Source: a virus (lineage: Duplodnaviria > Heunggongvirae > Uroviricota > Caudoviricetes). Taken from it: a DNA stretch of 26,152 nt. The notes under the pieces were generated by a model. It ran no database searches, was not told the DNA's origin, and saw only the letters and a program-made list of their open reading frames with translations. Within the stretch, counting starts at the first letter, position 1. Each line of letters begins with the position of its first letter. The translations under genes were made by a program, and so were the position numbers. The stretch covers positions 86,261 to 112,412 of IMG/VR virus record IMGVR_UViG_3300035660_000003; one strand, written 5' to 3'. Below, piece by piece: positions 1-26,151 of this stretch.

Positions 1-81
1 AACATCGCCTAATATCTTACTGTAATCACCAATATATCGTGCTTTAATTTTAGTTTTAGACGTATTGCTTGATATAATCAT
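1..81 (-). CDS. Possible 5' end of the next gene in the operon (partial, MIISSNTSKTKIKARYIGDYSKILGDV...)
   Basis: ATG at 81 preceded by AAGGTGGG. The frame stays open to the window edge and overlaps the end of the upstream GT gene. Too short to assign. Confidence 0.25.
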   Translation of the reverse strand, partial: MIISSNTSKTKIKARYIGDYSKILGDV

Positions 82-1282
82 CCCACCTTTTGATTATCTC
101 ATTCCAATTTGAATTTCTTTCATTCAAAATTTCATTCCAGACAACAATTGATTTTTGATTCCATTGAGCGTATTTAGAAAGTCCCTCACTTATGCATTGA
201 TGAAGCAAATTATTAGGATTGAAAACATTGTTCTCTTTTTCTTCAAGTATAGAAAATATATCTCTCATTTCTTTTATATTTTTGGGGTCAAATTTCCGTC
301 CCTCATTTTTCGAATTGATAACTTCTTTGAGTTGTTCTAGTAATTGTTTCGCTCTGCACTCATTACTATGTTTCTGCAATACGAGATTGAGTCCATTTCT
401 AATTATTCTTTTTCTTTCTTCGTCATTTTCCAGATAATATTTCCACTTATCCATAAAATTATACATGTTAATTTCAATCATGTTTTCATTTGGAACTATT
501 CCTAATGCTTTATAATCTAATGGTAAATCAGCTAAACATAATGACTCAGTTGCCATACTTTCCCAGTATTTCGTAACTGGAAATTTGAATAAACCCCCAT
601 CGAAAACCGTGATTTTAGATTTACAAAGAATACTAAGATACTCTGGATAAGAAAAGCGTCTTAGATTAGTTATTACTTTCAAAGAACCATTGTCGCACAC
701 CGATGTTCCCAAAAGTGATTCGTTAAAATCACTGTTAATTAACCATTTCCATATAGCTACCCTAATAGGATACACTATGTTACAACAGCCAGCAAGAAAC
801 ACATCAATTGTCCTTTCGAGATGTTGATTATAAAACATGTTTATCGGAACACTTCTGGGACAATAGCCAACAGTTCCACCGAATTCTTCTTTAGCTCTAA
901 TCCCAACCCCACCACCATACATTCTAAGAAACAAAACATCAAACTCTTTGTTTAGAAATCTATATTTTCTATTTTGCCATTCTCCATGAACGTCATTAAT
1001 AAATGTGATTTTTGGAATATCAGTCATGTGACCAATATCATTTATGTAAAGTCCATCGTTTACTATCACGTCTGGTTTTTCTTCTTTTACTATTACAGAA
1101 AAAGGACCTATTTTAGGGTTTTCTGGATAATATGGCATTTGAGATTCATCGTGGGTGGGTAGATTTGGAATGCCAACAAATACAATATTGTCTTTACCGA
1201 TTAAGTTTTCGAATGCTCGCCTAAACTCTGAATCTGGATAAACAAAAGGCATACTATTTCTAATTATCCATAGAACTTTCAA
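56..1282 (-). CDS. Glycosyltransferase, GT-B fold (CgeB/Glyco_trans_1_2-like), with ~85-aa C-terminal extension
   Basis: Motifs DVFLAG..YPIR, YLSILCKSKI, KYWESMATESLCLAD and YYLENDEERKRIIRNG...HSNECRAKQLL are typical of the CgeB-like family. TTG start overlaps the DegT stop (TTGA). Confidence 0.8.
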   Translation of the reverse strand: MKVLWIIRNSMPFVYPDSEFRRAFENLIGKDNIVFVGIPNLPTHDESQMPYYPENPKIGPFSVIVKEEKPDVIVNDGLYINDIGHMTDIPKITFINDVHGEWQNRKYRFLNKEFDVLFLRMYGGGVGIRAKEEFGGTVGYCPRSVPINMFYNQHLERTIDVFLAGCCNIVYPIRVAIWKWLINSDFNESLLGTSVCDNGSLKVITNLRRFSYPEYLSILCKSKITVFDGGLFKFPVTKYWESMATESLCLADLPLDYKALGIVPNENMIEINMYNFMDKWKYYLENDEERKRIIRNGLNLVLQKHSNECRAKQLLEQLKEVINSKNEGRKFDPKNIKEMRDIFSILEEKENNVFNPNNLLHQCISEGLSKYAQWNQKSIVVWNEILNERNSNWNEIIKRWDDYIKQYV

Positions 1283-2403
1283 ATTTTATCTCTTCCCAAT
1301 ACTTTGATTATTGTGTCAACGACCTCTTTTTGTTCTATTGTAGTCATCCCTTCAAATAACGGCAATGTTAATCCATATTGCCAAGCAAGTAATGAGTTTA
1401 AACATTGTTCGTGCTTCACGTTTATATATGGTGGTAAAATGTGAAGGCAGTTGGTTGGAATCTGAACTTCAATGTCTTTGCTTTTCAGATATTCTTTCAC
1501 TCTAAACTGGATTTCATCATCACGAACAAAGTGTTTATGATTGAAAAGTATGGTATATGATTGATAGGTATGAGTGGCGACTGGGGGAATATACGGAACG
1601 TTTACAATATCGTCTGGAATACTACTAAACAGTTCGCTATAAAATCCAGCCAACTTTACCCTTTCATTTATTATTGTGTTTATTTTCGAAAGACGAACTC
1701 TACCTATTGCAGATTGAACGTCACTAAGACGATAATTATATCCAACATATATATGTTGCCATTTATCATAACTTCGTCCGTGGTCTCTCAGAGAGCGAGC
1801 TAATTCATATATTTCATTGTTGTTCGTCACTAACATTCCACCTTCTCCAATGCCCAATAGTTTTCTAGGGTGAAAACTGAAACAAGACACATCGCCCCAC
1901 GTTCCAGCGAGTTTTCCATATCTTGAAGAACCTATTGCTGGAGCAGAATCTTCTAGCACATATAAACCATATTTCTCTGCTATCTCCATAATTGGTTTCC
2001 AATCAGCCGTTAAACCAAATTCACTTACTGGCATTATAACCTTTGTTTTGTTTGTAATGAATTTTTCTATGTGAGTCGGGTCTATCTGAAATTCTCTAAG
2101 ATGAATATCGCATATTATTGGAGTTGCTCTACAATGAAAGACCACATTAATGGTTGCTGGAAACGTAAAATCTGGAATAATTACTTCATCGCCGTTTTTT
2201 ACATGAAGTGACATAAGAGCAAGATGGAGAGCAGTAGTGCACGAACTTGTAGCCAATGCATATTTGACATCTAAATACTGAGCAAACTCTTTTTCAAACA
2301 TGGCGGTTTCTGGTCCTTGAGTTAACCAACCAGAATCGAAAACTCTTTTCACTGCATCGAGTTCTTCTTTTCCGAGTTTAGGACGAATAAGTGGAATTCT
2401 CAT
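1279..2403 (-). CDS. DegT/DnrJ/EryC1/StrS-family PLP-dependent sugar aminotransferase
   Basis: SGWLTQGP..FE.EFA, SSCTTALHLAL, GDEVIIPDFTFPAT, EDSAPA, SFHPRK (PLP Lys), GEGGM, GYNYRLSD. SD GAGGT. Confidence 0.95.
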   Translation of the reverse strand: MRIPLIRPKLGKEELDAVKRVFDSGWLTQGPETAMFEKEFAQYLDVKYALATSSCTTALHLALMSLHVKNGDEVIIPDFTFPATINVVFHCRATPIICDIHLREFQIDPTHIEKFITNKTKVIMPVSEFGLTADWKPIMEIAEKYGLYVLEDSAPAIGSSRYGKLAGTWGDVSCFSFHPRKLLGIGEGGMLVTNNNEIYELARSLRDHGRSYDKWQHIYVGYNYRLSDVQSAIGRVRLSKINTIINERVKLAGFYSELFSSIPDDIVNVPYIPPVATHTYQSYTILFNHKHFVRDDEIQFRVKEYLKSKDIEVQIPTNCLHILPPYINVKHEQCLNSLLAWQYGLTLPLFEGMTTIEQKEVVDTIIKVLGRDKI

Positions 2404-2405
2404 TT

Positions 2406-3284
2406 TTATGAACCTCTAATTTCTATTTCTCTCAACATGTCTTTTATTCCTTCTGTCAGAGTCCATTTTGGACTGTAACCTAAAAGTCTAATTGCTTTTC
2501 CAATATCATACCAGAATATTGGCGGGTCCCAAGGTCTAGCAGGTTTGATGATTGGTTCTAATTTTCTATTAAGTAAAATTGAACAAATATCATAGATTTG
2601 ACGTATGGGCATAGGATTCCCAGTTCCTATATTGTAAGATTCGTTTGTATATGATGTATTCAATGCTAGAATGTTTGCTTGCACAATATCTTTAACATAA
2701 ACCTGTTCAACTTGTTGTTTACCACCATAAAGAATAACGGGTTTATTCTGAGAAAGAAGATTAATAAAACATGATACTGCTCCCTTAGCTCCTCTTCCAT
2801 AGACATATCCATAACGAAGATTAATAAAAGGCAAATCATTTTTATGCATTTTAAGAATTTGTTCTGCCACCACTTTAGAAAATCCGTAATATGTATTAGG
2901 TTGCATAGAACAAGATTCGTCAATGGGCGGATGAATATCAGAAATTCCAAAATAAACTGCACCTGACGAAGCCGCAACTATGCGTTCAGCCTTCTTTTCT
3001 AATGCACATTGAACAACATTTATTAATCCTTCAACATTAACACGGAAAATTATTCTTGGGTCAGCCTCAACAATAGGAACGGCACATAAATGAAGGATTT
3101 TATCTCCCTCATTTATATATTTTTTCAAATCTGACGACAAAATATCACAAATAGTAATTTCTATTTCTGGAAATAATGAAGATGCACGAATATCCAATGG
3201 TAAAACTTCATATCCTAATTTTCTTAATTCTAATATTGTATGTCCAGCAATGAAGCCACCGCCGCCAGTAACAATTATTTTCAT
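2406..3284 (-). CDS. NAD-dependent NDP-sugar epimerase/dehydratase (extended SDR)
   Basis: TGGGGFIAG Rossmann motif, ASSGAVY, catalytic YGFSK (YxxxK), RYGYVYG, VYVKD, YNIGTG. SD GAGGAG. Confidence 0.93.
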   Translation of the reverse strand: MKIIVTGGGGFIAGHTILELRKLGYEVLPLDIRASSLFPEIEITICDILSSDLKKYINEGDKILHLCAVPIVEADPRIIFRVNVEGLINVVQCALEKKAERIVAASSGAVYFGISDIHPPIDESCSMQPNTYYGFSKVVAEQILKMHKNDLPFINLRYGYVYGRGAKGAVSCFINLLSQNKPVILYGGKQQVEQVYVKDIVQANILALNTSYTNESYNIGTGNPMPIRQIYDICSILLNRKLEPIIKPARPWDPPIFWYDIGKAIRLLGYSPKWTLTEGIKDMLREIEIRGS

Positions 3285-4613
3285 TTAGACATCTCCTCGG
3301 AGTTCAATATTCTGGTTTTCATCCCAGTTGTTAGTATTTACCCACGGTGGTTTGAATTTACTTATGCAAGCCAATTGTTTTCCGCTTCTTGACCTTGCCA
3401 TTGCATCAACATAACGAACTTCAATGTCTATTCTGTCGGAGAAATGTTTAACCAACCTAGTGAAATCTGGAACATGGTTAATATCCCATGCCTTGACCAA
3501 GAGCATTGCTTTACCTTGTTCGTCTTGTTGAACTTGATGTGCTTCGATAAGCATTAGAAAATCTTTTATATCGTAATACATGGACTCGTTGAGTTCTGTC
3601 ATGTTGAGCCAACCATTTTGTTTAGTCCATAGATATTGAAGGGTGCGACCAACTATATTTTCCAGTAATAATAATCCTCTACCACACGAACATTGATGCT
3701 CGGAGTATTTGCCAACATCTCCATTTTCATAACGAACTAAAGGCATGGCATAATTTAACAAGTCTGTCCATATGAAACGTCCGTCTTTCATGGGTTGAAG
3801 AATGTAACGTTCCATAGTCAAATGGATACCTTCGTGTTTATAGCATTCCCCACCCATTGCACCTAAATCTTGTGAACCATAGTAATTGAATACTGGAACT
3901 TCGAATGCTTCATTTGTCAATTTGCGTATATCTTCAGATAATGGTTCACAGTTGTTTATAAAACACTTTAAAGTTGGAATTTTAATGTTATATTTCAAAG
4001 CATAGAAAGATAAACTTCTCATTGCCGAAGCATATGCACGTATCGAGTAGGGAGCAAATTCTTGTATTACACGAAGATAGTTCACAATCGTTTGCTCATT
4101 CACCATCTGTTCTATTGGACAGAACAACAACTCAATCTTTCCATAGGGATTTTTGCCAATGCTTCTGAACGGTTCAACTGGATGTGAACCACCATGACCC
4201 AGTTCTCCAGCACCCCAAACAACTGCTTGTCTTGTCCACGTCAAGTGTGGCTCAGTAACCCAAGACCATATTCTCAAATCAGTATTAGTAATTGGAGTCA
4301 TGTCTGAAGGTTTCTGAACATTGACTACTTCAGAAGTTCCACCAGTCCATATCTTGTAACTTGGAATCTGTTTAGCCCACAATATATCATAGTTATCGTG
4401 AATTTGTTTCTTTGTTAGAATAGGTATTTTCTTCAAATCATCGAGACTGGATACTGAGTCTGGTAGATAACTATAGAATGGACATGAATTCTTCGCATAT
4501 TTTATTAGTTCGTTGAGACCTTCTAATTGCAGAGTTTCAATCTCTTCTTTAGTCCACCATTGAGATTTATTAAGAAAATCGTAAGACAGTTTTTCTCGAT
4601 AATGACTTATCAT
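3285..4613 (-). CDS. Adenylate-forming ligase, phenylacetate-CoA ligase/CapK-like family
   Basis: LKKIPILTK, TGGTS (A3), YYGSQD (A5), TDLLNYAMPLVRYENGD (A7), CSCGR, VGR (A8), SGK (A10 Lys). ATGA overlap with the upstream gene; SD GGTGG. Confidence 0.9.
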   Translation of the reverse strand: MISHYREKLSYDFLNKSQWWTKEEIETLQLEGLNELIKYAKNSCPFYSYLPDSVSSLDDLKKIPILTKKQIHDNYDILWAKQIPSYKIWTGGTSEVVNVQKPSDMTPITNTDLRIWSWVTEPHLTWTRQAVVWGAGELGHGGSHPVEPFRSIGKNPYGKIELLFCPIEQMVNEQTIVNYLRVIQEFAPYSIRAYASAMRSLSFYALKYNIKIPTLKCFINNCEPLSEDIRKLTNEAFEVPVFNYYGSQDLGAMGGECYKHEGIHLTMERYILQPMKDGRFIWTDLLNYAMPLVRYENGDVGKYSEHQCSCGRGLLLLENIVGRTLQYLWTKQNGWLNMTELNESMYYDIKDFLMLIEAHQVQQDEQGKAMLLVKAWDINHVPDFTRLVKHFSDRIDIEVRYVDAMARSRSGKQLACISKFKPPWVNTNNWDENQNIELRGDV

Positions 4614-6556
4614 ATTTCCACCATGAATACTTGTTCATATTCTTTTACCATATGTTTCCATGCCCACCTATCTAAAACTTTCTCCAAATTTTGTTTACCA
4701 ACCCACTTTCTCATACTAGGATTATCCTTTAAATACTGAAGTTTCTCGTTAATCTGTTTCACCATTTCATCTTCTGATTCAATCGGAACTAACCATTCCT
4801 TATCTAAGAATTCTGGAACTCCACCCACACTTGTAGAAACAATTGGTAATCCACAAGCGGCGGCTTCCAAAACTGGTTGAGGCATCCCCTCATATTTGCT
4901 AACGTTTACGAGACAGTCTATTGATTCATAAAACTCGACCATTTCATCCCGTGTTCTGCCCTTCACAAAAAACTTCGGTTCATGTCTATTAATTATTTTT
5001 ACTGGAAACGCCAACCTATTAAGAATATAAAAACGTTTCGCTGGAGATTTAGAGTTTCCAACCCATCCAACAACAAATCTATCTTTTGATTCTTTTTTAG
5101 TTGGTTTAAATATTTCATCGTCAACTCCATTATGACATAAGAAAAGATTATCGGCATTACGTGATTTAAAATAGTCAAAACTTTCTTTTGTAACGCAAAG
5201 TGTTTTCCAACCGTTTATCGGTGAATCAATGCGACCCCAATATACTTGTCCACCCCTTATTCCAACACATTTATTTTTCACTTTATTTATCTCTGCCTTA
5301 ACTTCTTTGGAACAAGCATCATAACAACTGTAATTCATACTAAATATGACATCAGAATTTTTCACGTCTTCTATGGTAATATCACACCATTTCTTTATTA
5401 TACAGTCATGCCTACCATATTTTTGTATGCCTCTAGCCGCAAAATCGAATGCCCATCCATATTCATCAATTATGATTAAAATCTTGAACTTGTCTCTTCT
5501 TCTTTCTCTTCCCCTAGTTATTGCCAAATTATTGAGTTTTTGTCTCTCATTATCAGAAATTCCACAAGTTAAACTCATTTGTCCAGAATGTAAACGTCTA
5601 TGGAAAATGATTTTTGGAATGATTGGCAATTCATAGTTTTCAAGAACTCTTATTTTAAAATCTAAGTCGTCACCAAATTCATATTCTGGATTTCTGTATC
5701 CTATTCTCTCATAAGCAGTTTTTCTGATTAGTATGGTGGACTGGCATAAACAAGAATCTTCGTCAAAATTTCCATCGAAAATCTTCTTTTTATCTAACTT
5801 CTTATAACAATGTTCTACCCGCCAATTCGGGTCTTTAGAAAGACCACTTCTTGGAAAATTAGGGTCGTTAAATTCGTCATACCATCCACAAACCGCATAG
5901 AACCTGCTCTTATCGAGAAAGTTTACTAGATTTTCTATAGCATCAAGTTCTAAATAGTCATCTGAATCTAAATGAATAATAAAATCTCCAGAACTATTTC
6001 TTATTCCAATATTGATTGCGGATGGAAGATTCACGTTTGGAATAGCAATTAATTTTATTCGTTTGGGATATTTCTTTCTATACTCTTCAATTATTTCTGT
6101 ATCGTTACCTATGCTTCCATTGTCAACTATTACATGTGAAACATTTCTGTATGTCTGGTCTAAAACAGATTCGATACACTCTCTAAGGAATGGGTTTCCA
6201 TCTCTGTTCACAGTTATAACAGAAACCTTCGGAAGAGATTTATCAATCATGTGTCTCGTTTCATCTATTTTTTCCTCTTTCAGTCGCCTTATGATTTTTT
6301 GTTTCTCGGTTTCTTCAGCTATTTTTTTCCGTCGTAGTTCCTCTTCCCGAACTTTCAGTTTTTCTTCTTCTTCCTTTTCTCGTTTACGTCTTTCGTTTAT
6401 TTCCTTTTCTTCTTGTTTACCTTTTTCGTAACATCGAATACAGTAACCGCTATAATCGCTATCTTCGACAAAGCACATTGTATATCTTCCGCATCTTTTA
6501 CAGATTGACATTTCAGAATTCCCCATCAATTTCATTTTCAAACATCCAGTCCGCAT
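4610..6556 (-). CDS. Bifunctional GT2 + GT4 glycosyltransferase with N-terminal Zn-ribbon and coiled coil
   Basis: GT2: PKVSVI, ESVLDQTY, HLDSDD (DxD), GDDLDF. GT4: VGWVG, SKYEGMPQPVLEAAACGLPIVSTSVGG (EX7E). N-terminus has CKRC..CIRC plus an E/K/R-rich helix. Start uncertain (6556, 6535 or 6511). Confidence 0.9.
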   Translation of the reverse strand: MRTGCLKMKLMGNSEMSICKRCGRYTMCFVEDSDYSGYCIRCYEKGKQEEKEINERRKREKEEEEKLKVREEELRRKKIAEETEKQKIIRRLKEEKIDETRHMIDKSLPKVSVITVNRDGNPFLRECIESVLDQTYRNVSHVIVDNGSIGNDTEIIEEYRKKYPKRIKLIAIPNVNLPSAINIGIRNSSGDFIIHLDSDDYLELDAIENLVNFLDKSRFYAVCGWYDEFNDPNFPRSGLSKDPNWRVEHCYKKLDKKKIFDGNFDEDSCLCQSTILIRKTAYERIGYRNPEYEFGDDLDFKIRVLENYELPIIPKIIFHRRLHSGQMSLTCGISDNERQKLNNLAITRGRERRRDKFKILIIIDEYGWAFDFAARGIQKYGRHDCIIKKWCDITIEDVKNSDVIFSMNYSCYDACSKEVKAEINKVKNKCVGIRGGQVYWGRIDSPINGWKTLCVTKESFDYFKSRNADNLFLCHNGVDDEIFKPTKKESKDRFVVGWVGNSKSPAKRFYILNRLAFPVKIINRHEPKFFVKGRTRDEMVEFYESIDCLVNVSKYEGMPQPVLEAAACGLPIVSTSVGGVPEFLDKEWLVPIESEDEMVKQINEKLQYLKDNPSMRKWVGKQNLEKVLDRWAWKHMVKEYEQVFMVEI

Positions 6557-6582
6557 TCCTTTACTTTATATTCCAGTTCCAC

Positions 6583-6598
6583 TATTTAAGGTTTTCGG
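6583..6598 (-). promoter_or_regulatory. Archaeal BRE-TATA promoter of the sugar operon (CCGAAA-AC-CTTAAATA)
   Basis: Matches the cRNAANt + YTTAWATA consensus. Predicted TSS ~6560, just before ATG 6556. Near-identical to the 16304-16319 promoter. Confidence 0.7.
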
Positions 6599-6647
6599 CA
6601 AATTGCTTTTGTCAACTTTTATTCTCTATCGCTAATAAAATATTAAT

Positions 6648-7628
6648 TTATCCGTTTTTCGTCCTCTTGACAATCTGGAAAAGTTTATTAATCAATTGAG
6701 TTGTGTCCATTATTCGCAAAACATTTTCCTTCCCATTTTTTGCCATTCTCAGCCAGAAATCTTCATCATTAAATAACCGTTCAATTAATTTCTTCTGTTT
6801 GTCATAGTCTCGATGTTTGGTATATAATTCTGGAAAGAATAATTTAACCGAAGGTGATGAACCAATACATGGAACATGAGCTAAAGCACATTCCATACCA
6901 AATCTCGACCATGCTTTATAGTTTTCATTATCATCGATGGCAATATAACATTTACGTAATAGAAACATGAATCCCTGTTGTGGCATCCGTCCCTGATGGG
7001 GCGTTGAATTAAAAATCTTGAAGGTGTGTGGTAGATTCTCTGGAAGTTTAATGGATGCGGATTTAACACTATGTTTGAGTAATGCAATGTTCCTCATTTT
7101 AGTTTTTAATTCTGCTTTACTGGGAAAGATTTGTAAATATTCCTTATATCTAACAAGTTGAGGCAAAAGCAAATGATATATTGATTTAGAACTTCTTTTC
7201 CTGATATATTGTTCCAAAAGTGGATTGTATTCAATATTCCATGCATCAATCACTTCTAATAAGCCACATTCATCAAGAAATTTTTCAGGTGACTTTCCCT
7301 TAGCCTCTGATGGTAAATCATTCCATGTATAGTGATTTGGAATAAAAAGCCACATGAAATCCATATCTTCTTGATATATTATTTTGGCATTTGGGGCGAT
7401 TTTACGTATTACAAATGGAAGTTTATACCATTTCCAACTAATATCGTGACCTACACATCTGACAAAGATTACATCGGCGTTCTTTATAAGTTCGTTTTCT
7501 GGGAAGACGGACGAATCAATAGTGACGAAATTAATCTTAAACTCTGAAGTGATATAATTCCTTAAAGCAATCTCCCATTGAAAGAAATTTTCCTGCGGAA
7601 GATTCATAACAAAACAAAGATTAATCAA
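6648..7628 (-). CDS. Glycosyltransferase, GT-B/GT4-like
   Basis: C-terminal donor-binding motif WSRFGMECALAHVPCIGS..LFPEL. Likely start is TTG at 7628 (MINLCFV, a typical GT first strand), with SD GAGGG and a TTGA overlap with the HNH stop. Confidence 0.7.
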   Translation of the reverse strand: MINLCFVMNLPQENFFQWEIALRNYITSEFKINFVTIDSSVFPENELIKNADVIFVRCVGHDISWKWYKLPFVIRKIAPNAKIIYQEDMDFMWLFIPNHYTWNDLPSEAKGKSPEKFLDECGLLEVIDAWNIEYNPLLEQYIRKRSSKSIYHLLLPQLVRYKEYLQIFPSKAELKTKMRNIALLKHSVKSASIKLPENLPHTFKIFNSTPHQGRMPQQGFMFLLRKCYIAIDDNENYKAWSRFGMECALAHVPCIGSSPSVKLFFPELYTKHRDYDKQKKLIERLFNDEDFWLRMAKNGKENVLRIMDTTQLINKLFQIVKRTKNG

Positions 7629-8119
7629 TGAAGAGTTCCCTCTTTCCTTTTTTGGTGTGGACAATATCCATAATGACCAATGGAACAATTGCAATTATAA
7701 CAGAGAACACGAAACCCTTCTGGAAAATCATTGGTTGAAAGCCATTGATACAAATTGCCATCTTTCCGCAATTTTGCATGTTTGTTTCCACCACCTTTTA
7801 TATGGTCTATTGTCAAAAATTCGATATGTGATTCATTACAGTTTGGACATGAGCATTTGGGTGGATTGCCACCATAATGAACTAGACATCGTAAACGAAG
7901 TTTTTGTCGAAAATGTTTTTGATAAACTTTAAATTTTTCTCGATTTCTTTCTTGATATTCTTTTCTTTGTTCAATAAGTCTTTCTTTGTTTTCTTTCCAA
8001 TATTTTTTGCTATATTCAGATACTTGTTGTTTGTGTCTAAAAATATATTCTTTGTGTTTTCTCAATATTTCCTCTTTGTTCTTTTCATACCAAAGATGAT
8101 TTCGTTCTTTTTTGTCCAA
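7625..8119 (-). CDS. Free-standing HNH (His-Me finger) endonuclease, paralog 1, with four 15-aa repeats
   Basis: HYGGNPPKCSCPNC..FLTIDHIKGGG..FRVLCYNCN..CPH. TTG start with SD GGTGGAG. Confidence 0.85.
   Translation of the reverse strand: MDKKERNHLWYEKNKEEILRKHKEYIFRHKQQVSEYSKKYWKENKERLIEQRKEYQERNREKFKVYQKHFRQKLRLRCLVHYGGNPPKCSCPNCNESHIEFLTIDHIKGGGNKHAKLRKDGNLYQWLSTNDFPEGFRVLCYNCNCSIGHYGYCPHQKRKEGTLH
7778..7813. repeat. 36-nt exact repeat, copy 1 (ATGTTTGTTTCCACCACCTTTTATATGGTCTATTGT)
   Basis: Identical to 15889-15924. Encodes TIDHIKGGGNKH in both HNH genes. Confidence 0.95.
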
Positions 8120-8155: not shown

Positions 8156-8171
8156 TATTTAAAACTTTTGT
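8156..8171 (-). promoter_or_regulatory. BRE-TATA promoter of HNH paralog 1 (ACAAAA-GT-TTTAAATA), overlapping the lon stop codon
   Basis: Consensus match. Predicted TSS ~8133, immediately 5' of the SD. Confidence 0.7.
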
Positions 8172-10261
8172 TTCTCTTTAACACTTTTCTCTTCAACAAA
8201 AGCAATTTTTATGTAATCCTCTAAAGTTTCACATCCAATAACTTTTATTGTATATTCGTTTGGAATAATATCCTGTTCATAGTTTGTCTTAGGAATGACT
8301 ACTTCAGCAAATCCCCATCTTTGAGCCGCCATGATTTTTTCATGTGTTCCGCCAACAGCCGTAATAATTATTTTTCCGTCGATTCCAATGTTGATTTCTC
8401 CAGAAAATGCAATGTCTTGTCTGATTTTCTTATTCTGAATTATAGATAATAGTGCCAAAGTCATTGCAACGCCAGCACTTGGTCCTTCAACTCCATGTGC
8501 TTGAGCAAAATCTATATGAGTTCGTTTATCAAGTGGCGAAAATCCATACATTTGTTGAATTACATGAGCAACTTTAGAAATTGAATGTTGCATATAAGAT
8601 TCATCTTTTACAGCAACACCAGTTATATGGAAATATCCATCCTGTTTCTTTTTTACTTCTTCCATTGAAGCCCTAATTGGCAGGACTGAACCCATCATTT
8701 CATCTGCATTTGGGTCTTTTGTTATTGATAGACCATAGATTTGACCGATTTTAGGTTCAGATTTCGGATTAATTATCAGATAAACATTCTTTTCGGCGAC
8801 AAATCTTTCCAATACTTGTTGATATATTGATTTACAATGCACGTCTATGGCTTCACGGATATACTTAACATCAACTTCAGATTTACCTTCGTCTCTCGCC
8901 AATGTGCTTGCGGTCTTGATTATAGAAATTAATGGTCTGAATTTGGTCGTCAATTTATCTCTTCTTCCACTCTTTCTCCTAGATTCTTCAATCACTTCCA
9001 TACAGGATTCTCTGGTGAATGGTAAAAGATTGAACCGTTTAACCTCTTGAGAGATGAATTGAACGACTTTCTGACGATTTTCAATCGTGTTATCCATGTA
9101 ATTATTCATATAAACTGTCTTACCATAACCCTGAATACGGTCTAACAATGCTGCATGAATATTTGGCAGACTATCTAAGTTTCCTGCCGCTATAAAGAAT
9201 ACCATAGATGGAACTGGTTCGGTTGAAACTGCCATAGCCGCCGTATCTCCACCATGAAATAGACTTCTTAAAGCTATTGGAATTTGTCCCTCTTCAAGAA
9301 CTGTCAAAAGTGTAATTGCCTCTGCACCAGTCAAATTTTTAATCTCATCTATAAATAATATTCCTAAATGAGCACGATGCACGTCACCAGCACTAACTCT
9401 TTGATGTTCTGGAGTTCCTAAACCACCAGTCTGATATGGGTCCCAAGCAATCGAACCGAATAATTGTGCTGAACCATGTCCTGTAGCATCTATATAGGGA
9501 ACTCTTCCAGATGAATTATCAATCAATAATTTAGGAGCATCAGACCTTTCTGCTCCACCAATTCCTTGTGCGGGACCAACCCCACCCATCATTTTTCCAA
9601 ACCATCCTATCATGAAAGAGAAAAACAATAATGATGCTCCACCAATTACTAACGGTGCAACAAAAATGAATGTATTTAGAGGATTTTCTGATAAAACTAT
9701 AATGAACATTGATAAACCTATTAATGCCAATCCGAATCCCCCTAAGAATGTTCGTAGAATTCTCATTCCCCAACGTTGCCAAAATGATTTTTTTCCAATT
9801 TTCTGTGTTTGAATGGAAATTATTTCTTTTCCTTTACCTGCCTGATGAATACTGATTTTTGGTTCTGATGGTAGAGTTTTATTCTTCCAAGACAAAACAT
9901 CATAAAGTTTGATTTTGTGTTTCTTATAGATTTCAGTCATATAAGAAGACATGGCTCGACCAATCAAAGACTTTCCTGTGCCAGCATCGCCCAACAAAAG
10001 TAAGAAAGGTCCAGCAGGCAACCATTCTTTAGGTTGAGGTTTCAGTCCCATAGGGTCTTCAAAGGCTTTCCACCATTTCTTTTGTTTTAGATAAGTTAAT
10101 TTATGAACCCATTCGTCAATGCATAATCGACACTCTTGCATTGCCCTATCTTGCCCAATAATCCAATCTATTAATTGGTCTGAAACGGAAAATCCCAATG
10201 TGTTCTTAAAATCTTTCCATTTCCACTTTTCAGTATTATCACCAAAGTAATCATCAGTCAT
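8159..10261 (-). CDS. lonB: Archaeal-type membrane-anchored ATP-dependent Lon protease (LonB)
   Basis: Walker A GDAGTGKS, two TM helices inserted in the AAA+ domain, GDVHRAHLGILFIDEI (Walker B), catalytic GPSAG (Ser) and GGTHEK (Lys). Start placed at ATG 10261 behind SD AGGTG. No intein. Confidence 0.95.
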   Translation of the reverse strand: MTDDYFGDNTEKWKWKDFKNTLGFSVSDQLIDWIIGQDRAMQECRLCIDEWVHKLTYLKQKKWWKAFEDPMGLKPQPKEWLPAGPFLLLLGDAGTGKSLIGRAMSSYMTEIYKKHKIKLYDVLSWKNKTLPSEPKISIHQAGKGKEIISIQTQKIGKKSFWQRWGMRILRTFLGGFGLALIGLSMFIIVLSENPLNTFIFVAPLVIGGASLLFFSFMIGWFGKMMGGVGPAQGIGGAERSDAPKLLIDNSSGRVPYIDATGHGSAQLFGSIAWDPYQTGGLGTPEHQRVSAGDVHRAHLGILFIDEIKNLTGAEAITLLTVLEEGQIPIALRSLFHGGDTAAMAVSTEPVPSMVFFIAAGNLDSLPNIHAALLDRIQGYGKTVYMNNYMDNTIENRQKVVQFISQEVKRFNLLPFTRESCMEVIEESRRKSGRRDKLTTKFRPLISIIKTASTLARDEGKSEVDVKYIREAIDVHCKSIYQQVLERFVAEKNVYLIINPKSEPKIGQIYGLSITKDPNADEMMGSVLPIRASMEEVKKKQDGYFHITGVAVKDESYMQHSISKVAHVIQQMYGFSPLDKRTHIDFAQAHGVEGPSAGVAMTLALLSIIQNKKIRQDIAFSGEINIGIDGKIIITAVGGTHEKIMAAQRWGFAEVVIPKTNYEQDIIPNEYTIKVIGCETLEDYIKIAFVEEKSVKEKQKF

Positions 10262-10293
10262 GCTCACACCTGAGAGTAGAAAGTAATTCGAAG

Positions 10294-10370: not shown

Positions 10371-10853
10371 ATGATATGTCAGATATGCAAAAAGCAATTC
10401 AGTCCAAGTAAATATAATAAAGTCCGTCAGAAATATTGTAGTTTAACGTGTCGAAAAATTGGATTAAGAGAAAATTACCAGCGTAATTCTAAAAGATATT
10501 GGCGAAAACATAAAAAAGAATATCTCAAAAACATTGAAAGGAGCAAAATGAGACTAAAGAAGTTACAATTGCAATATCGCTTTGAAGTTCTTATTCATTA
10601 TGGTGGCAATCCGCCTAAATGTTCTTGCTGTGGCGAAGATAATATCCTTTTTCTTACTATAGACCATATTCACGGTGGTGGAGAAAGTGACCGTAAAAAA
10701 TTAAAAGGAAGTAATTTTTATAAGTATCTAATTGACAAGTGTTTTCCAGACGGATTTCAGGTATTATGTTCTAACTGCAATATGGCAAAAGGAAGGAACA
10801 AAGTTCAATTCTGTCCTGTCCATCATCCAGAACAATATAAAATTGAAGTTTAA
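10371..10853 (+). CDS. Free-standing HNH endonuclease, paralog 2, with N-terminal Zn finger
   Basis: CQIC..KYCSLTC Zn finger, then HYGGNPPKCSCCG..FLTIDHIHGGG..FQVLCSNCN..CPVH. Its stop overlaps the convergent MCM stop (TTAA, 10850-10853). Confidence 0.85.
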   Translation: MICQICKKQFSPSKYNKVRQKYCSLTCRKIGLRENYQRNSKRYWRKHKKEYLKNIERSKMRLKKLQLQYRFEVLIHYGGNPPKCSCCGEDNILFLTIDHIHGGGESDRKKLKGSNFYKYLIDKCFPDGFQVLCSNCNMAKGRNKVQFCPVHHPEQYKIEV

Positions 10854-13277: not shown

Positions 13278-15758
13278 TTAATTTTGATTCATCCAATTGT
13301 CCATCCGAGTTACGCCCAAAATATCTTTCTCGAAAGACAAGTTTAGCGAGTCCAGAATTTGTTCGAATGTGGTGCGGAGATATTCGATGTATTTTTCAAC
13401 ATCAATATCTTCGGTTTTAGCAAGTTCAAGAGGCTTCACATTTTCGCCTCTACACAGTTTTGGATTAACCTTCACAAACTTTATCGAAGAACCAATTCCA
13501 ATATCCTCAGAATTCAACATTTTAGCCGCCCGAACGTGTTGAGGAATTCCTTTTTCAGTTCGTTCTCCTTTCTCATTTGCCTTACCATATTCCGATATTT
13601 CTTTTGTAATACCAACATTAAATGCCAAATCTGCAAGATTACTCCACTTTCTTTCTTTCAAGATTCTATAGTTAAATTTCAGTAAATCAATTATTTTATG
13701 TTTGGCTAGAGTCATATCCTGTTCAGAATTAACCTGCGACAATATTACTTTGGTATTGTCAAAGGCATTCTTGATAATCGGCGGAGTATGTTTCTTTTTG
13801 CCTGTTAGTCCTTTGACATCCACGAATCCATCTTCGAGAACTCCGAGATAGTTCTTTTTTCTTTCGGATAAACATACATAGCGATAAGATTTATCCAATT
13901 CAAATTCGATGTCAAATTCCTGTTTAGCCCAAGCAATTAATTGGTCTAATACTTCTTTAAGCGGATTCTTAATGAAAATACTATCAGTATCGCCGTAAAG
14001 AATTTCCAAACCTAATTCTTGACCGTGTTGAATTGTCTGACCAATAATATGCCTTCCAATTGCCGTAACCTCTTCAGCCGCTGGTGGACAATACATTTCG
14101 AAACTTTCTGAACCAAAGACTCCGTAACTGGCATTCATAATAACTTTAATTGACTGTTCAGCCACACCATACCATGTCTGAAGTGATTTTGGAAGTTCTT
14201 TATCTTTGGCTTTCTTTTTATACCAATTCACACGCAAATCCCGAAGAGACCCAATCAACATACTTTCAAGTGACCTCTCTTTCAAACACATCCAATGCGG
14301 AAGTTCGCCCACAGTATTGGATTTACATTCTTCATGAGGGCAGTTAATCGTTGAATAGCCAATGTTATAGACTTTTATAATCGAGGGATATAGACTGGCA
14401 AAATCTCCGACTTTGACATTGAAATGTATTCCACTCTTTGGGGGAATTACTGTTGCACCTTTATATTTTTTGCCCTTAACTACTGCTGTAGAAGATGTTA
14501 CGCCCTTCATGGTCTTAATTTCATCGGCGTTTGGAATCAAAAAGTTCCTTTTACGATGTTCATAGGTCAGAAAACTTAGAATCCAACTTGAAACGGATTT
14601 TCTTGAAACGTTCTCGATTGGCATTCTGCTCATTCGGTTAAGAACTAGCATCAAGTTCATGACTAGATTATCATTGAATGTGGTTAATTCTAAGGTTAGT
14701 TCAGCATCACGCATACAATAAGTAATCAATTCAAAATATGATAGGTCGTTAACCCATCTACCAGTCTGGATTTTGCCTTTATTAATTAATGCCTTTGAAA
14801 TAGTATCCAAATCAATGGTTTTATATTTTTGCTGAAAAGCATAGATTTGCATTGCTCGAATGAAAAAGAATTTGTATAGGTCAATATGAATTCCCTTGGT
14901 TAATAAAGTAATCCTATCTCTTACTTCAATTGGGATTTCTGATTCTGGAATTCCGAGTCGCAATGCCCGCACAGCAAGATATTTTAGGTCGAAGTCATCA
15001 CCGTTAAAAGTTATTATGAATGGATATTCATCGAATAAATGGAAAATCATTTTGATGAGTTCGACTTCGGATGAGAAAAATATAGTTTGTGTGCAAGAAT
15101 CTGGATAAATATCCAAGACCTTATTTTCTCGAAGTAGTATAAGTGCAATTCGTTCCCCAGTATTCGAAGCCAGACATGCACACAAAATCGGTAAATTGGC
15201 ACTTTCAGCATTCGGGATTTTTTCCCCAACATTCATAATCTCTAAATCCAAACTTGCCCTCTTGAAATTGGGAGCAGAATATTCGAGCAACCTTGCCCAT
15301 GTCTCGAAACAACTCTTGTCACTTTCATTAATTTTCATTAATTTCAGAACTTGTTCAACACGTTTTTCCGCCTCTGAATCTGTCACGAATTCTAATTTGC
15401 CATCCTTCCTTTGGTATGGCATTCCCATCATAATATTCTTGTCGTAAATATATCCTTGGAAAAACTTAACGTGATTTTCATAGACCTGTGGCATTCCATG
15501 AGTTTGTTTAACATATGATGGATATGCCAAATATGTCTTGTTCATTGTCACATTTTCATGTTTAAGAGCATCATATTTAATGACCTCTTCCGAATTTATC
15601 ACGCCTTTAATTGGCTGACTAAGTTTGATACTCGACAAGAAATATGCTTTATAATCTATATCAGTCCATTCTTCGATTTGCTGAGTTTCATCATTATACA
15701 ATTTTAGGCAGATTGCGTTGAGGGCAGAATTGTAGCTACTACTTACTATGTAAAGCAT
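13278..15758 (-). CDS. polB: Family B DNA polymerase, archaeal PolB1-like
   Basis: ExoI DLEI, ExoII FNGDDFDL, ExoIII YCMRDA, YKGA, DFASLYPSII, KVIMNASYG, YGDTDS, KKNY, VKG. PolB1-type signatures HIDLYKFFF..YAF and W....YEHRKRNFLIP. PIP-like C-terminus TRMDNWM. Start ATG 15758 behind GGAGTG. Confidence 0.97.
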   Translation of the reverse strand: MLYIVSSSYNSALNAICLKLYNDETQQIEEWTDIDYKAYFLSSIKLSQPIKGVINSEEVIKYDALKHENVTMNKTYLAYPSYVKQTHGMPQVYENHVKFFQGYIYDKNIMMGMPYQRKDGKLEFVTDSEAEKRVEQVLKLMKINESDKSCFETWARLLEYSAPNFKRASLDLEIMNVGEKIPNAESANLPILCACLASNTGERIALILLRENKVLDIYPDSCTQTIFFSSEVELIKMIFHLFDEYPFIITFNGDDFDLKYLAVRALRLGIPESEIPIEVRDRITLLTKGIHIDLYKFFFIRAMQIYAFQQKYKTIDLDTISKALINKGKIQTGRWVNDLSYFELITYCMRDAELTLELTTFNDNLVMNLMLVLNRMSRMPIENVSRKSVSSWILSFLTYEHRKRNFLIPNADEIKTMKGVTSSTAVVKGKKYKGATVIPPKSGIHFNVKVGDFASLYPSIIKVYNIGYSTINCPHEECKSNTVGELPHWMCLKERSLESMLIGSLRDLRVNWYKKKAKDKELPKSLQTWYGVAEQSIKVIMNASYGVFGSESFEMYCPPAAEEVTAIGRHIIGQTIQHGQELGLEILYGDTDSIFIKNPLKEVLDQLIAWAKQEFDIEFELDKSYRYVCLSERKKNYLGVLEDGFVDVKGLTGKKKHTPPIIKNAFDNTKVILSQVNSEQDMTLAKHKIIDLLKFNYRILKERKWSNLADLAFNVGITKEISEYGKANEKGERTEKGIPQHVRAAKMLNSEDIGIGSSIKFVKVNPKLCRGENVKPLELAKTEDIDVEKYIEYLRTTFEQILDSLNLSFEKDILGVTRMDNWMNQN

Positions 15759-16269
15759 GAGGACACACTCCACTATTTCGTTTGCCCCAATTACAATTCA
15801 TACATAATACTTGATAACCTTCAGGATAACCGTTTTTAACGAGCCAATAATAAAAACTATAACCCATACTTAAATTAAGCGATTTTTTATGTTTGTTTCC
15901 ACCACCTTTTATATGGTCTATTGTAAGAAACTCTATAATTGTTTCGCCACAGCAGGCACATTTAGGTGGATTACCACTATAATGAATAAGCACTTTCACT
16001 TTTAATTGTAACCGTTTCTGAGAAACAGCGTCTTTATTCTTTTGATACCATCGTTTTAGTATCTCTTTAATTTTTTCTTTATTGGCATCTCGATATTTTT
16101 TCTCTCGTTGAAGAATTTTTTCTCGGTTTTTCTGATAATACCGTTTTTTTATTTCTCTGTCTTTTTCTGGATTGTTTTTCCGCCATATTTTCATATAATC
16201 ATTTAATTTTTTAGAATTTTGACGTTGGTAATTCCGCATATATTGTTTATGCTTTTCGATATCCATCAT
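15739..16269 (-). CDS. Free-standing HNH endonuclease, paralog 3, with five 15-aa repeats
   Basis: HYSGNPPKCACCG..FLTIDHIKGGG..YQVLCMNCN..CPH. Its 3' end overlaps the polB start by 20 nt. Confidence 0.85.
   Translation of the reverse strand: MMDIEKHKQYMRNYQRQNSKKLNDYMKIWRKNNPEKDREIKKRYYQKNREKILQREKKYRDANKEKIKEILKRWYQKNKDAVSQKRLQLKVKVLIHYSGNPPKCACCGETIIEFLTIDHIKGGGNKHKKSLNLSMGYSFYYWLVKNGYPEGYQVLCMNCNWGKRNSGVCPHALHSK
15889..15924. repeat. 36-nt exact repeat, copy 2
   Basis: Identical to 7778-7813. Confidence 0.95.
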
Positions 16270-17266: not shown

Positions 17267-17836
17267 TCATTCTTTATTTTCATGCCGTTTTATCCAATTG
17301 CAATTAGCACAGAGAAGTTGATAGTTCTTTGAACCGCTTTTCAGTTGTTCAAGAACATAAATATAAAATCTTTTTGGACTACCAAATGATTTTATTTCTT
17401 TACATCCGCCACCGCTAATGTGGTCTATCTGTAAACATCTAATATCTGAACAACCATTAGAGACAAGACAACTAGGATTGTTACACTTATTGCCGAGAAG
17501 TTCGAATATTTGCCCCCTCAATTGGGCGTATTCCATCTGATGTTTCTTGTTTATTTTTTCTTTGTTTTTGTTATAGTGAGCACGTATTAAATTTATGTGT
17601 TCTTCATAATATTTCTTGGCGTGTATTTTCTGTTCCTCTTTGTGTTTTTCATAATATTTTTTTCTCCACGCTTTGATTTTTTCTTTGTTTTTATTATAGT
17701 ATTTTCGTGCAGATTTGTTAGCAGATTCCTTGTGCTGCAAATAATATTCATGATTTCTCATCATGATTTCTTTTTTGTGTTTTTGATAGTATTTTCGAAC
17801 AGTTTCTCGGTGTTTTTCATTTTTGACATTCATCAT
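17267..17836 (-). CDS. Free-standing HNH endonuclease, paralog 4 (more divergent), with five 15-aa repeats plus a partial one
   Basis: LGNKCNNPSC..CLQIDHISGGG..YQLLCANCNWIKR. YY at aa 16, 31, 46, 61 and 76. Confidence 0.85.
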   Translation of the reverse strand: MMNVKNEKHRETVRKYYQKHKKEIMMRNHEYYLQHKESANKSARKYYNKNKEKIKAWRKKYYEKHKEEQKIHAKKYYEEHINLIRAHYNKNKEKINKKHQMEYAQLRGQIFELLGNKCNNPSCLVSNGCSDIRCLQIDHISGGGCKEIKSFGSPKRFYIYVLEQLKSGSKNYQLLCANCNWIKRHENKE

Positions 17837-24917: not shown

Positions 24918-25373
24918 TTATCCCAATAATCGAGCAAAAACTTCTTCAATTTCTCCGCCGATGTCTGGAATGAATTTATAATCTTTAATCTGGTCTCTAG
25001 TTATCCATTTATAGGCTTGACATTCAGCCAACTTGATTTTTATTTCATCAGAAGTTCCGTCAATGACAACATAAAAACTGATGATAAGACGATTAATTTG
25101 TCCAGCATAAATCGAACAGAGGAAATGCAGTTCTTTATTATAAGCATCGATTCCAGTTTCTTCTTTTAACTCTCTAATAGCACATTTCTCAACGGCAAAG
25201 TATCGAAAGTCTTGACCTATTGGAGTTCCATCTTCAGACTGGAGTTTTCCACCAGCTACAGTCCACAAATTTGCGAATGCTTTATCTGGCGGTCTTTGAA
25301 CGATTAAAGCCTTCCTGTCCATAGAAATCACAATTAATGTAGCACTAACTTTCAAAGATTCTAATTCGCCCAT
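24918..25373 (-). CDS. Nudix hydrolase (MutT-like) with insertion in the Nudix box
   Basis: LIVQRP...LWTVAGGKLQSE-(19 aa)-RELKEETGI and ECQAYKWIT. Confidence 0.9.
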   Translation of the reverse strand: MGELESLKVSATLIVISMDRKALIVQRPPDKAFANLWTVAGGKLQSEDGTPIGQDFRYFAVEKCAIRELKEETGIDAYNKELHFLCSIYAGQINRLIISFYVVIDGTSDEIKIKLAECQAYKWITRDQIKDYKFIPDIGGEIEEVFARLLG

Positions 25374-25935: not shown

Positions 25936-25951
25936 TATTTAAGTCTTTTGG
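25936..25951 (-). promoter_or_regulatory. BRE-TATA promoter (CCAAAA-GA-CTTAAATA), overlapping the upstream stop codon
   Basis: Consensus match. Predicted TSS ~25913. Confidence 0.7.
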
Positions 25952-26151
25952 TTATATGAGTCGGGAAGAATGATTTTATCTTCCATATCATATAATTCTT
26001 TTGGCAGTTTGCCTTTCTGAATTTGCAGAATAGTCCAATAAGCTCCAACAAGATTCCATATGGATGAAATAAGATGGTTTTCTCCGTCATCTCTACCATC
26101 CACAACGCAAGCAAGATGTCTCATTGCAGAATCTAAAAATCGTGATACTGG
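25939..26151 (-). CDS. dATP/dGTP diphosphohydrolase (DUF5664-like), 5'-truncated by the window edge
   Basis: The frame is open to the window end: PVSRFLDSAMRHL...GRDDGENHL..IWN matches the G.P.SR..DSA.RHL..G..DEDHL...WN family pattern. Confidence 0.8.
   Translation of the reverse strand, partial: PVSRFLDSAMRHLACVVDGRDDGENHLISSIWNLVGAYWTILQIQKGKLPKELYDMEDKIILPDSYNQKT

Follow-up and report, generated by a model that had tools for sequence, protein, structure and literature searches.

Gene content of the locus

The sequence analysed here, referred to as the window, comprises 26,152 nucleotides and forms the last 26 kb of the 112,412-base virus record IMGVR_UViG_3300035660_000003 (positions 86,261 to 112,412); at its start lies a cassette of glycosyltransferase (GT) and sugar-modifying genes, which is the subject of this work. 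An earlier note on the window had described a cluster of six genes at 56-7628, and all six open reading frames were found there, intact and on the minus strand. The cluster does not, however, end at position 56: five more sugar genes lie beyond it, and the cassette totals 11 genes (genome positions 82973-93888).

6648-7628, minus strand: GT-B1, a GT4-like glycosyltransferase of GT-B fold (326 residues from TTG at 7628)
4610-6556, minus strand: GT2-GT4 fusion whose N-terminal leader is Cys-rich and charged (PF00535 and PF13692/PF00534)
3285-4613, minus strand: PaaK/CapK-like adenylate-forming ligase (sequence matches to PaaK-like structures; motifs)
2406-3284, minus strand: SDR1, a short-chain dehydrogenase/reductase (SDR), predicted GalE-type C4 epimerase/oxidoreductase (PF01370, S107-G-A, Y133xxxK137)
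1279-2403, minus strand: DegT/DnrJ pyridoxal phosphate sugar aminotransferase, hereafter DegT (PF01041, catalytic Lys181 and Asp152)
56-1282, minus strand: CgeB-like GT-B glycosyltransferase (PF13524)
1-81, minus strand (genome 85913-86341): 5' end of LbH1, a hexapeptide acyltransferase
genome 85176-85793, beyond the window edge: PIG-L deacetylase
genome 84326-85174, beyond the window edge: LbH2, a hexapeptide acyltransferase
genome 83437-84318, beyond the window edge: SDR2
genome 82973-83440, beyond the window edge: LbH3, a hexapeptide acyltransferase

The tight coupling claimed for all six genes holds for five of them (gaps of -4, 0, 2 and -4 nt), whereas GT-B1 is separated from the first ATG of the GT2-GT4 gene by 91 nt. 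On the side running from LbH1 to LbH3 the junction gaps are -26, 119, 1, 7 and -4 nt. Compared with their closest relatives, the cassette genes are under purifying selection, with ratios of non-synonymous to synonymous substitution rates (dN/dS) of 0.10-0.35. LbH3 is similar to known sugar N-acetyltransferases (WxcM, WlbB and QdtC). No strongly hydrophobic segment was seen in any of the 11 proteins in a KD19 hydrophobicity scan, the maximum being at most 1.63 as against 2.44 in the membrane protein LonB. Flippase, polymerase and GT-C genes are absent from the cassette, although host membrane parts could still be used, and a pyrophosphorylase or nucleotidyltransferase for nucleoside diphosphate (NDP)-sugars was looked for and not found. 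The cassette holds no exact copy of the 16-bp palindrome of this genome, the nearest one lying between PolB and MCM; a scan for sigma-70 promoters, a bacterial consensus unsuited to archaea, returned fewer sites than shuffled sequences did.

A fixed slot with exchanged contents

Eight viral loci were compared, namely that of this virus and those designated L005, L007, L009, L010, L093, L102 and L103; L102 ends at a contig edge and L103 is partial, and genes unseen in these two were not counted as absent. The relatives were supplied by protein searches, while direct scans of viral contigs with a single DegT, a single ligase and the GT-B1 alignment detected none. Five relatives (L005, L103, L007, L010 and L102) keep the fixed order MCM, LonB, GT-B1 and sugar genes, with different contents in the slot; in L102, two small genes precede GT-B1. 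The upstream side of the slot in this virus is occupied by the following features.

8159-10267, minus strand: LonB protease, which conservatively flanks the slot on its upstream side and serves as a marker for the host (TIGR00764, E 2e-117)
7625-8119, minus strand: HNH-like insertion between LonB and GT-B1, outside the pathway

The HNH-like gene overlaps the start of GT-B1, and L005 and L103 lack it at this position; its family recurs in the window (7625-8119, 10371-10853, 15739-16269 and 17267-17836).

The close relatives L005 and L103 share flanks of 83-93% identity with this virus (PolB, LonB and GT-B1 85-92%, SDR2 83-85%), whereas the ligase falls to 57% in L005 and 37% in L103, and the CgeB-like GT to 43% and 30%, respectively. 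The aminotransferase is missing from L005 and replaced in L103 by a different one (35%), which stands beside a true RmlB. The virus of L009, by contrast, is distant (capsid 30%, terminase 36% identity), yet it shares GT2-GT4, SDR1, DegT, the CgeB-like GT, PIG-L and the three acyltransferases at 74-90% and in nearly the same order, together with a ligase of 54% identity. Since L009 has this set of genes despite its divergent capsid and terminase, the middle of the cassette has moved between distant viruses and been shuffled further. Ligase, GT4, CgeB-like GT and SDR are found together in six of the eight loci and DegT in three; the recurring core thus consists of GT4, the CapK/PaaK-like ligase, the CgeB-like GT and an SDR, with the aminotransferase as an optional component, and the contents of the slot are swapped in the manner of a bacterial serotype locus. 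Nor is the cassette freshly captured host DNA: in 301 Bathyarchaeia genomes, the best matches to DegT and the ligase reached 43% and 32%, and GT-B1 had none.

Other genes seen in the slot encode a polysaccharide deacetylase, GNAT, sulfotransferase, ATP-grasp enzyme, Asn synthase, UDP-GlcNAc 2-epimerase and cytidylyltransferase (L007:12447-15338; L010:11713-18274; L102:9141-15120; L005:15043-18390). Downstream in L005 are two N6/N4 methyltransferases and an S-adenosylmethionine synthase. The distant virus of L009 has a ribosomal S30-like gene (L009:20104-20322) and three further GT4 genes (L120:44-8005), one of them with an intein.

Viral genome and probable host

The record carries a 127-base direct terminal repeat and is listed as complete and circular. 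It encodes an HK97-type major capsid protein and a terminase large subunit (phrog_544, E 2e-9, and phrog_2, E 3e-19) and, as had been read from the window alone, a portal:

22549-24795, minus strand: portal protein (Atlas feature match 0.97 to portal clusters)

The portal had no match in Pfam, NCBIfam or PHROG; its homologs in L010, L102 and L093 are 32-42% identical. With capsid, terminase large subunit and portal (Atlas features) in one complete record with direct terminal repeat, the virus belongs to the Caudoviricetes. An integrase was not found in the genome. Nudix and PF18909 diphosphohydrolase genes lie near the portal (window positions 24918-25373 and 25939-26151), and Pfam matches outside the window include DruA (two proteins), ribosomal uL16, Top6A/Spo11, Band 7 and DNA ligase domains.

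The sequence GATC does not occur in the 112 kb, and GTAC occurs six times (about 359 expected for each). The loss of GTAC is limited to this virus, L005, L103 and L007; GATC is absent from all viral cassette loci and present in 32-71 copies in the cellular glycan loci fetched.

The gene families of the cassette are typical of cellular polysaccharide loci, and the cluster could in principle be host chromosome, the case that would have overturned the earlier note, or a misassembly, beside a provirus. We consider this next to impossible: the record is a closed viral circle, one contig of a second sediment study contains the trypsin-like flank together with the entire cassette and GT-B1, the same slot is occupied in the five related viral contigs, and the contrast in GATC separates the viral from the cellular loci.

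The host is probably a member of the Bathyarchaeia, a group of sediment archaea, as judged by protein similarity. The LonB protease shares 58% identity with its counterpart in a Bathyarchaeia metagenome-assembled genome, compared with 34-38% for four other archaeal groups, and Bathyarchaeia are the sole named taxa among the homologs of SDR1. MCM similarity gave no discrimination between hosts.

The sugar route lacks a 4,6-dehydratase

SDR1 (PF01370, E 6e-34) is most similar in the Protein Data Bank (PDB) to the UDP-glucose 4-epimerase 4zrm. In 4,6-dehydratases the catalytic Ser/Thr is followed by DE, DK or SE (PMC8987622); at these positions SDR1 has S-G-A and SDR2 T-A-C, whereas the RmlB of L103, serving as a control in the same alignment, has T-D-E. 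None of 120 SDR1 homologs carries the acid/base pair in any of its forms (DE, DK, SE, CE). By this motif neither SDR groups with RmlB, GMD, PseB or PglF, and both have the features of GalE-type extended SDRs (Gly-rich NAD motif, Ser/Thr, YxxxK and no extra acid/base residue), with the last Gly of the NAD motif replaced by Ala in SDR1 and a score under the galE equivalog cut-off. SDR1 is accordingly annotated as a predicted GalE-type C4 epimerase/oxidoreductase, no 4,6-dehydratase; SDR2 matched best to Pal, UDP-glucuronate decarboxylase and 4-epimerases.

The aminotransferase is a clear DegT family member (PF01041, E 6e-101; 338.7 bits against a cut-off of 19.8) and scores under the cut-offs of the PseC, LegC, ArnB and WecE equivalogs (best PseC, 256.6 against 423.5). 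Its top PDB matches (8vr3/8vr5, 3bn1 and 9bgp) belong to a set comprising the 4-aminotransferases of Psychrobacter (Pcryo_0618) and Vibrio vulnificus, perosamine synthase and ArnB (E of about 1e-65 to 1e-53, about 30-37% identity), within which enzymes for pentose and for 6-deoxyhexose substrates are not told apart by score. As these relatives are C4 aminotransferases, the enzyme is probably C4-specific, and an aminosugar is a likely product. A structure model of it was poor (pLDDT, predicted local distance difference test, of 52) and no fold inference was drawn. Identity to its counterpart in L009 is 90%, whereas the best matches in the 301 Bathyarchaeia genomes do not exceed 43%. The keto precursor of DegT would have to come from the host, or from oxidation without dehydration.

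The cluster had been read as a glycan-making operon built on the standard route, in which an SDR dehydratase and DegT convert an NDP-sugar into an NDP-aminodeoxysugar. The tailoring and transfer kit stands, but the route does not: as the SDRs are without the dehydratase pair and no nucleotidyltransferase was found, the textbook pathway is not encoded, and DegT itself is optional. In its strict form, with SDR1 as dehydratase, an NDP-4-amino-4,6-dideoxysugar as product and the ligase as its N-acylating enzyme, the proposal could draw on the adjacency of SDR1 and DegT and their co-inheritance in L009, on perosamine synthase among the top matches of DegT, and on the PaaK-like NatL2 and AjiA1 among the PDB matches of the ligase, which form amides or esters without coenzyme A. 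It is very doubtful in view of the active-site residues of both SDRs and of the ligase being kept in viruses without DegT. What we predict from the proteins encoded is that the virus tailors the NDP-sugars of its host.

In the same slot of L103, a true dTDP-glucose 4,6-dehydratase and a DegT (L103:15389-17481) correspond to the route that the earlier note had proposed.

A CapK/PaaK-like ligase as a core component

The ligase matched PaaK- and F390-synthetase-like NCBIfam families, all under cut-off (equivalog scores of 38.8 against 646 bits for PaaK and 36.2 against 459 bits for F390 synthetase), and the PDB entries 4r1l, 6wuq (AjiA1) and 6siw. Its motifs (TGGT 90, YGSQD 245, RYENGD 294, GR 322 and SGK 410) place it in the PaaK/CapK branch of the ANL enzymes, with a hinge that lacks the usual Asp, and its homologs P0021-P0033 carry the PF27533 domain (CapK_C). 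Viral ligases and those of Bathyarchaeia glycan loci form one clade (support 100/100) with two viral subclades, in a tree that was rooted at midpoint and carries no direction of transfer. Cellular ligases of 42-44% identity are encoded on metagenome contigs, one of which is a piece of Bathyarchaeia chromosome that also encodes a Wzx flippase. Cellular relatives of the ligase adjoin genes for UDP-sugar dehydrogenase and Gfo/Idh/MocA proteins. Otherwise similarity is low: 32% for the best match in the 301 Bathyarchaeia genomes, 23-31% for relatives among the matches listed in a profile scan of genome contigs with the ligase alignment, and 23-25% for four unannotated matches in the GenBank phage set.

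In Vibrio cholerae, the presence of a glycine amide on a HexNAcA uronic acid depends genetically on the CapK/PaaK-like protein VpsH (PMC13463779). By analogy, a uronic acid amide is the probable product of the viral ligase. Both are phenylacetate-CoA-ligase-like proteins in polysaccharide-type loci, a likeness by description and not by alignment; unlike the viral cassette, VpsH acts in a bacterial Wzx/Wzy lipid-linked pathway (PMC13463779). An amide-forming role is preferred over acylation of the DegT product because the ligase persists in viruses without DegT (L005, L007 and L093, the first also devoid of any acyltransferase), because UDP-sugar dehydrogenase and Gfo/Idh/MocA genes are found in the vicinity of its cellular relatives, and because the slot of L010, a virus that has no ligase, includes genes of ATP-grasp and Asn-synthase type.

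A gene for 210 residues (L001:1324-1956, genome 80323-80955) is located 2 kb downstream of the cassette and has counterparts among the sugar genes of L009 (6314-6919) and L093 (7694-8311). It had no match in Pfam or PDB. Its pattern GxExE / ELRT / GxHVH / EYR is reminiscent of carboxylate-amine ligases.

Glycosyltransferases and alternative products

The four GT domains proposed for the cluster were all recovered, GT2, GT4 and PF13524 with Pfam and that of GT-B1 by fold. The GT2 domain of the fusion protein spans residues 113-285 (PF00535, E 5e-29) with DxD at 197-200, and the GT4 domain residues 524-606 (PF13692/PF00534) with a complete Ex7E at 556-564; the protein is 74% identical to that of L009 over its full length (dN/dS 0.35), while L005, L103 and L093 have the GT4 half only. 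The CgeB-like GT (PF13524, E 5e-8) is 82% identical to that of L009, and its nearest Atlas clusters (score 0.96-0.97) consist to 70-97% of viruses, mostly tailed. GT-B1 had no match to any hidden Markov model. Its AlphaFold model, built from 12 homologs (pLDDT 77.5), begins at ATG 7607, without the first seven residues of the start at 7628 that homologs reach, and matches GT4-type GT-B folds with two Rossmann domains (Z 18.7, root mean square deviation 4.5, 281 aligned residues); identity to the GT4 structures is 10-15%, and in the Ex7E motif the second Glu is invariant and the first position Lys or variable. GT-B1 is 85-86% identical to its homologs in L005 and L103 (dN/dS 0.10-0.13) and 33-36% to those in L007, L010 and L102. 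Viral contigs encode it and no homolog was found among the 301 Bathyarchaeia genomes; it is the upstream anchor that follows the viral backbone and a candidate initiating transferase.

A strain from the second study (run X2) is nearly identical over most of the cassette; its differences cluster in the GT2 part (window positions ~5840-6400) and in GT-B1 (6650-7600), and the charged leader of GT2-GT4 has a short duplication. A stand-alone, weakly scoring GT2-like gene is found 21 kb from the cassette (L004:1860-2495, genome 60859-61494).

The GTs might instead glycosylate modified bases of the viral DNA against restriction, as phage clusters of GTs and epimerases do (10.1101/2023.12.21.572611). 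The cassette stands behind PolB-MCM, the genome has the PF18909 diphosphohydrolase and Nudix genes, and GT-B1 also matches the folds of the T4 alpha- and beta-glucosyltransferases, with lower Z (15.0-15.2). Phage DNA GTs, however, are tied to base-modifying neighbours, being ThyS- or 5mYOX-linked (10.1101/2023.12.21.572611), and TET/JBP, thymidylate synthase, C5 methyltransferase, PurA/PurZ and QueC were not found in the complete genome, although divergent forms could escape such a search. The avoidance of GATC and GTAC points to escape from restriction by loss of sites, and the ligase and three acyltransferases would be superfluous. DNA hypermodification is therefore an improbable function of the cassette.

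No better placed is the possibility that GT4, deacetylase, ligase and acetyltransferase make a small molecule resembling bacillithiol, mycothiol or an aminoglycoside. PIG-L matches BshB1 (E 6e-14, far under cut-off), BshA ranks with the best structural matches of GT-B1, and the same gene logic has been noted in Borgs (10.1101/2024.11.05.622173). Yet PIG-L and ligase do not co-occur consistently, L005 having the ligase alone and L010 PIG-L alone, and four GT domains and rapid swapping are a better fit to a surface glycan.

The acceptor of the glycan

We regard it as very probable that the cassette builds a glycan. Our preferred interpretation, to which we assign a probability of roughly 0.5, is that the cassette is a virus-resident, exchangeable unit whose enzymes attach glycans to the viral particle itself while in the cytoplasm. 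Host NDP-sugars would be taken unmodified, because no activating enzyme was found. SDR1 and SDR2 would epimerise or oxidise at C4, and DegT would aminate a 4-keto NDP-sugar derived from a host dehydratase or from non-dehydratase SDR oxidation; the three hexapeptide enzymes would N- or O-acylate and PIG-L de-N-acetylate the sugars, and the ligase would adenylate a carboxylate, most likely that of a uronic acid, and couple it to an amine, for example an amino acid. GT-B1 would then start the chain on a viral acceptor, with GT2, GT4 and the CgeB-like GT extending it, and a swap of the middle genes would change the outer sugars. The acceptor would be reached in the cytoplasm because the cassette has no strongly hydrophobic segment, flippase or GT-C. 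The virion, with about an even chance, is favoured as acceptor because the enzymes are soluble and GT-B1 goes with the viral backbone and was not found in the host genomes searched, and also because the nearest clusters of the CgeB-like GT are mostly from tailed viruses and mycobacteriophages provide a precedent.

The same enzymes could, however, serve to convert the host surface, acting at the cytoplasmic face on dolichol-linked N-glycan intermediates; an altered receptor glycan on S-layer or archaellum would exclude competing viruses. Uronate-threonine amides occur in Methanococcus N-glycans, the ligase shares one clade with chromosomal surface-glycan loci of Bathyarchaeia, and exchange among distant viruses of one host group would suit an acceptor that belongs to the host. 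Temperate viruses are the typical agents of conversion, though, and no integrase was found here; the cassette is without membrane GT or flippase, and GT-B1 follows the viral backbone with no host homolog in the genomes searched. With no membrane flippase, polymerase or GT-C, the locus does not qualify as a conversion locus of Wzx/Wzy or Gtr type. Host-surface conversion is the foremost alternative, possible but rather unlikely.

Several points weigh against glycosylation of the particle. Structural proteins showed no enrichment of N-glycosylation sequons, the counts being uninformative, and the cassette is located behind replication genes and not beside the capsid gene. VpsH works on lipid-linked intermediates, namely disaccharides (PMC13463779), and cellular relatives of the ligase belong to loci for host surface glycans where a Wzx flippase is encoded; both points fit modification of the host surface equally well. 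The keto-sugar for DegT may come from a host dehydratase or from SDR oxidation, and the virion itself is an acceptor that we infer, at odds no better than a coin toss. Given the exchange of slot contents among related viruses, a variable sugar coat of their own making is probable for these viruses. Only tentatively can this be extended to a picture in which tailed viruses of Bathyarchaeia have particles with serotype-like glycans, bearing amino-acid-amidated uronic acids made by their own CapK/VpsH-type ligase, with the cassette traded between distant viruses and also with host surface-glycan loci.

Relation to known systems and implications

The fibril glycan clusters of Mimivirus and other Megavirinae combine virus-encoded aminosugar enzymes with GTs and have clade-specific contents. 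R141 of Mimivirus, listed as a DE-type dehydratase (PMC8987622), is paired there with an aminotransferase, whereas the present cassette has no 4,6-dehydratase and belongs to a virus of a different realm and host; the related L103, with its RmlB and DegT, has the Mimivirus-type pairing. Closer by host, no characterised example was found in an archaeal tailed virus, as had been supposed, but a predicted one is published: GuangzhiV1, a head-tailed virus of Asgard archaea, encodes three GTs and an NDP-sugar-modifying enzyme, for which modification of virion or host proteins was proposed (PMC13700489). Like the cassette described here, that locus is variable, being absent from the relative GuangzhiV2, and it contains a GDP-mannose dehydratase and a methyltransferase (PMC13700489); unlike it, the present cassette has 11 genes, including an aminotransferase, acyltransferases, a deacetylase and a CapK-like ligase, and is exchanged over eight loci.

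In the mycobacteriophages Che8, Corndog and Myrna, phage-encoded GTs decorate capsid and tail tube with glycans (PMC12363180, citing Freeman et al. 2023). They resemble this virus in having several soluble GTs of their own, and are described with transferases only and with demonstrated glycans (PMC12363180), whereas the present system comprises a sugar-tailoring pathway, with the virion as a proposed acceptor. LPS (lipopolysaccharide)-like islands of the cyanomyoviruses S-SCSM2R and P-SSM2 (PMC12801897) and glycoconjugate regions of Borgs (10.1101/2024.11.05.622173) contain GTs, epimerases and DegT-family genes with only putative targets, and the accessible portions of these two reports mention no CapK-like ligase, unlike here. 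DegT genes occur in 93 phage records. Predicted glycan loci in tailed viruses are thus already published; new are the CapK-like ligase as a recurring core gene of viral glycan cassettes and an anchored, exchanged cassette seen across eight viral loci.

The chemistry of CapK/VpsH ligases is poorly understood in general, and a compact soluble cassette, with natural variants differing by few genes, makes both this chemistry and the acceptor testable by expression. The fixed slot and its exchanged middles suggest that a surface sugar is under pressure to diversify in these viruses of an abundant group of sediment archaea, for which antibody escape is excluded as the reason. Since tailed viruses are assembled in the cytoplasm, away from the glycosylation machinery of the archaeal membrane, a set of soluble glycan enzymes encoded by the virus would, if true, show how archaeal tailed viruses become glycosylated at all.

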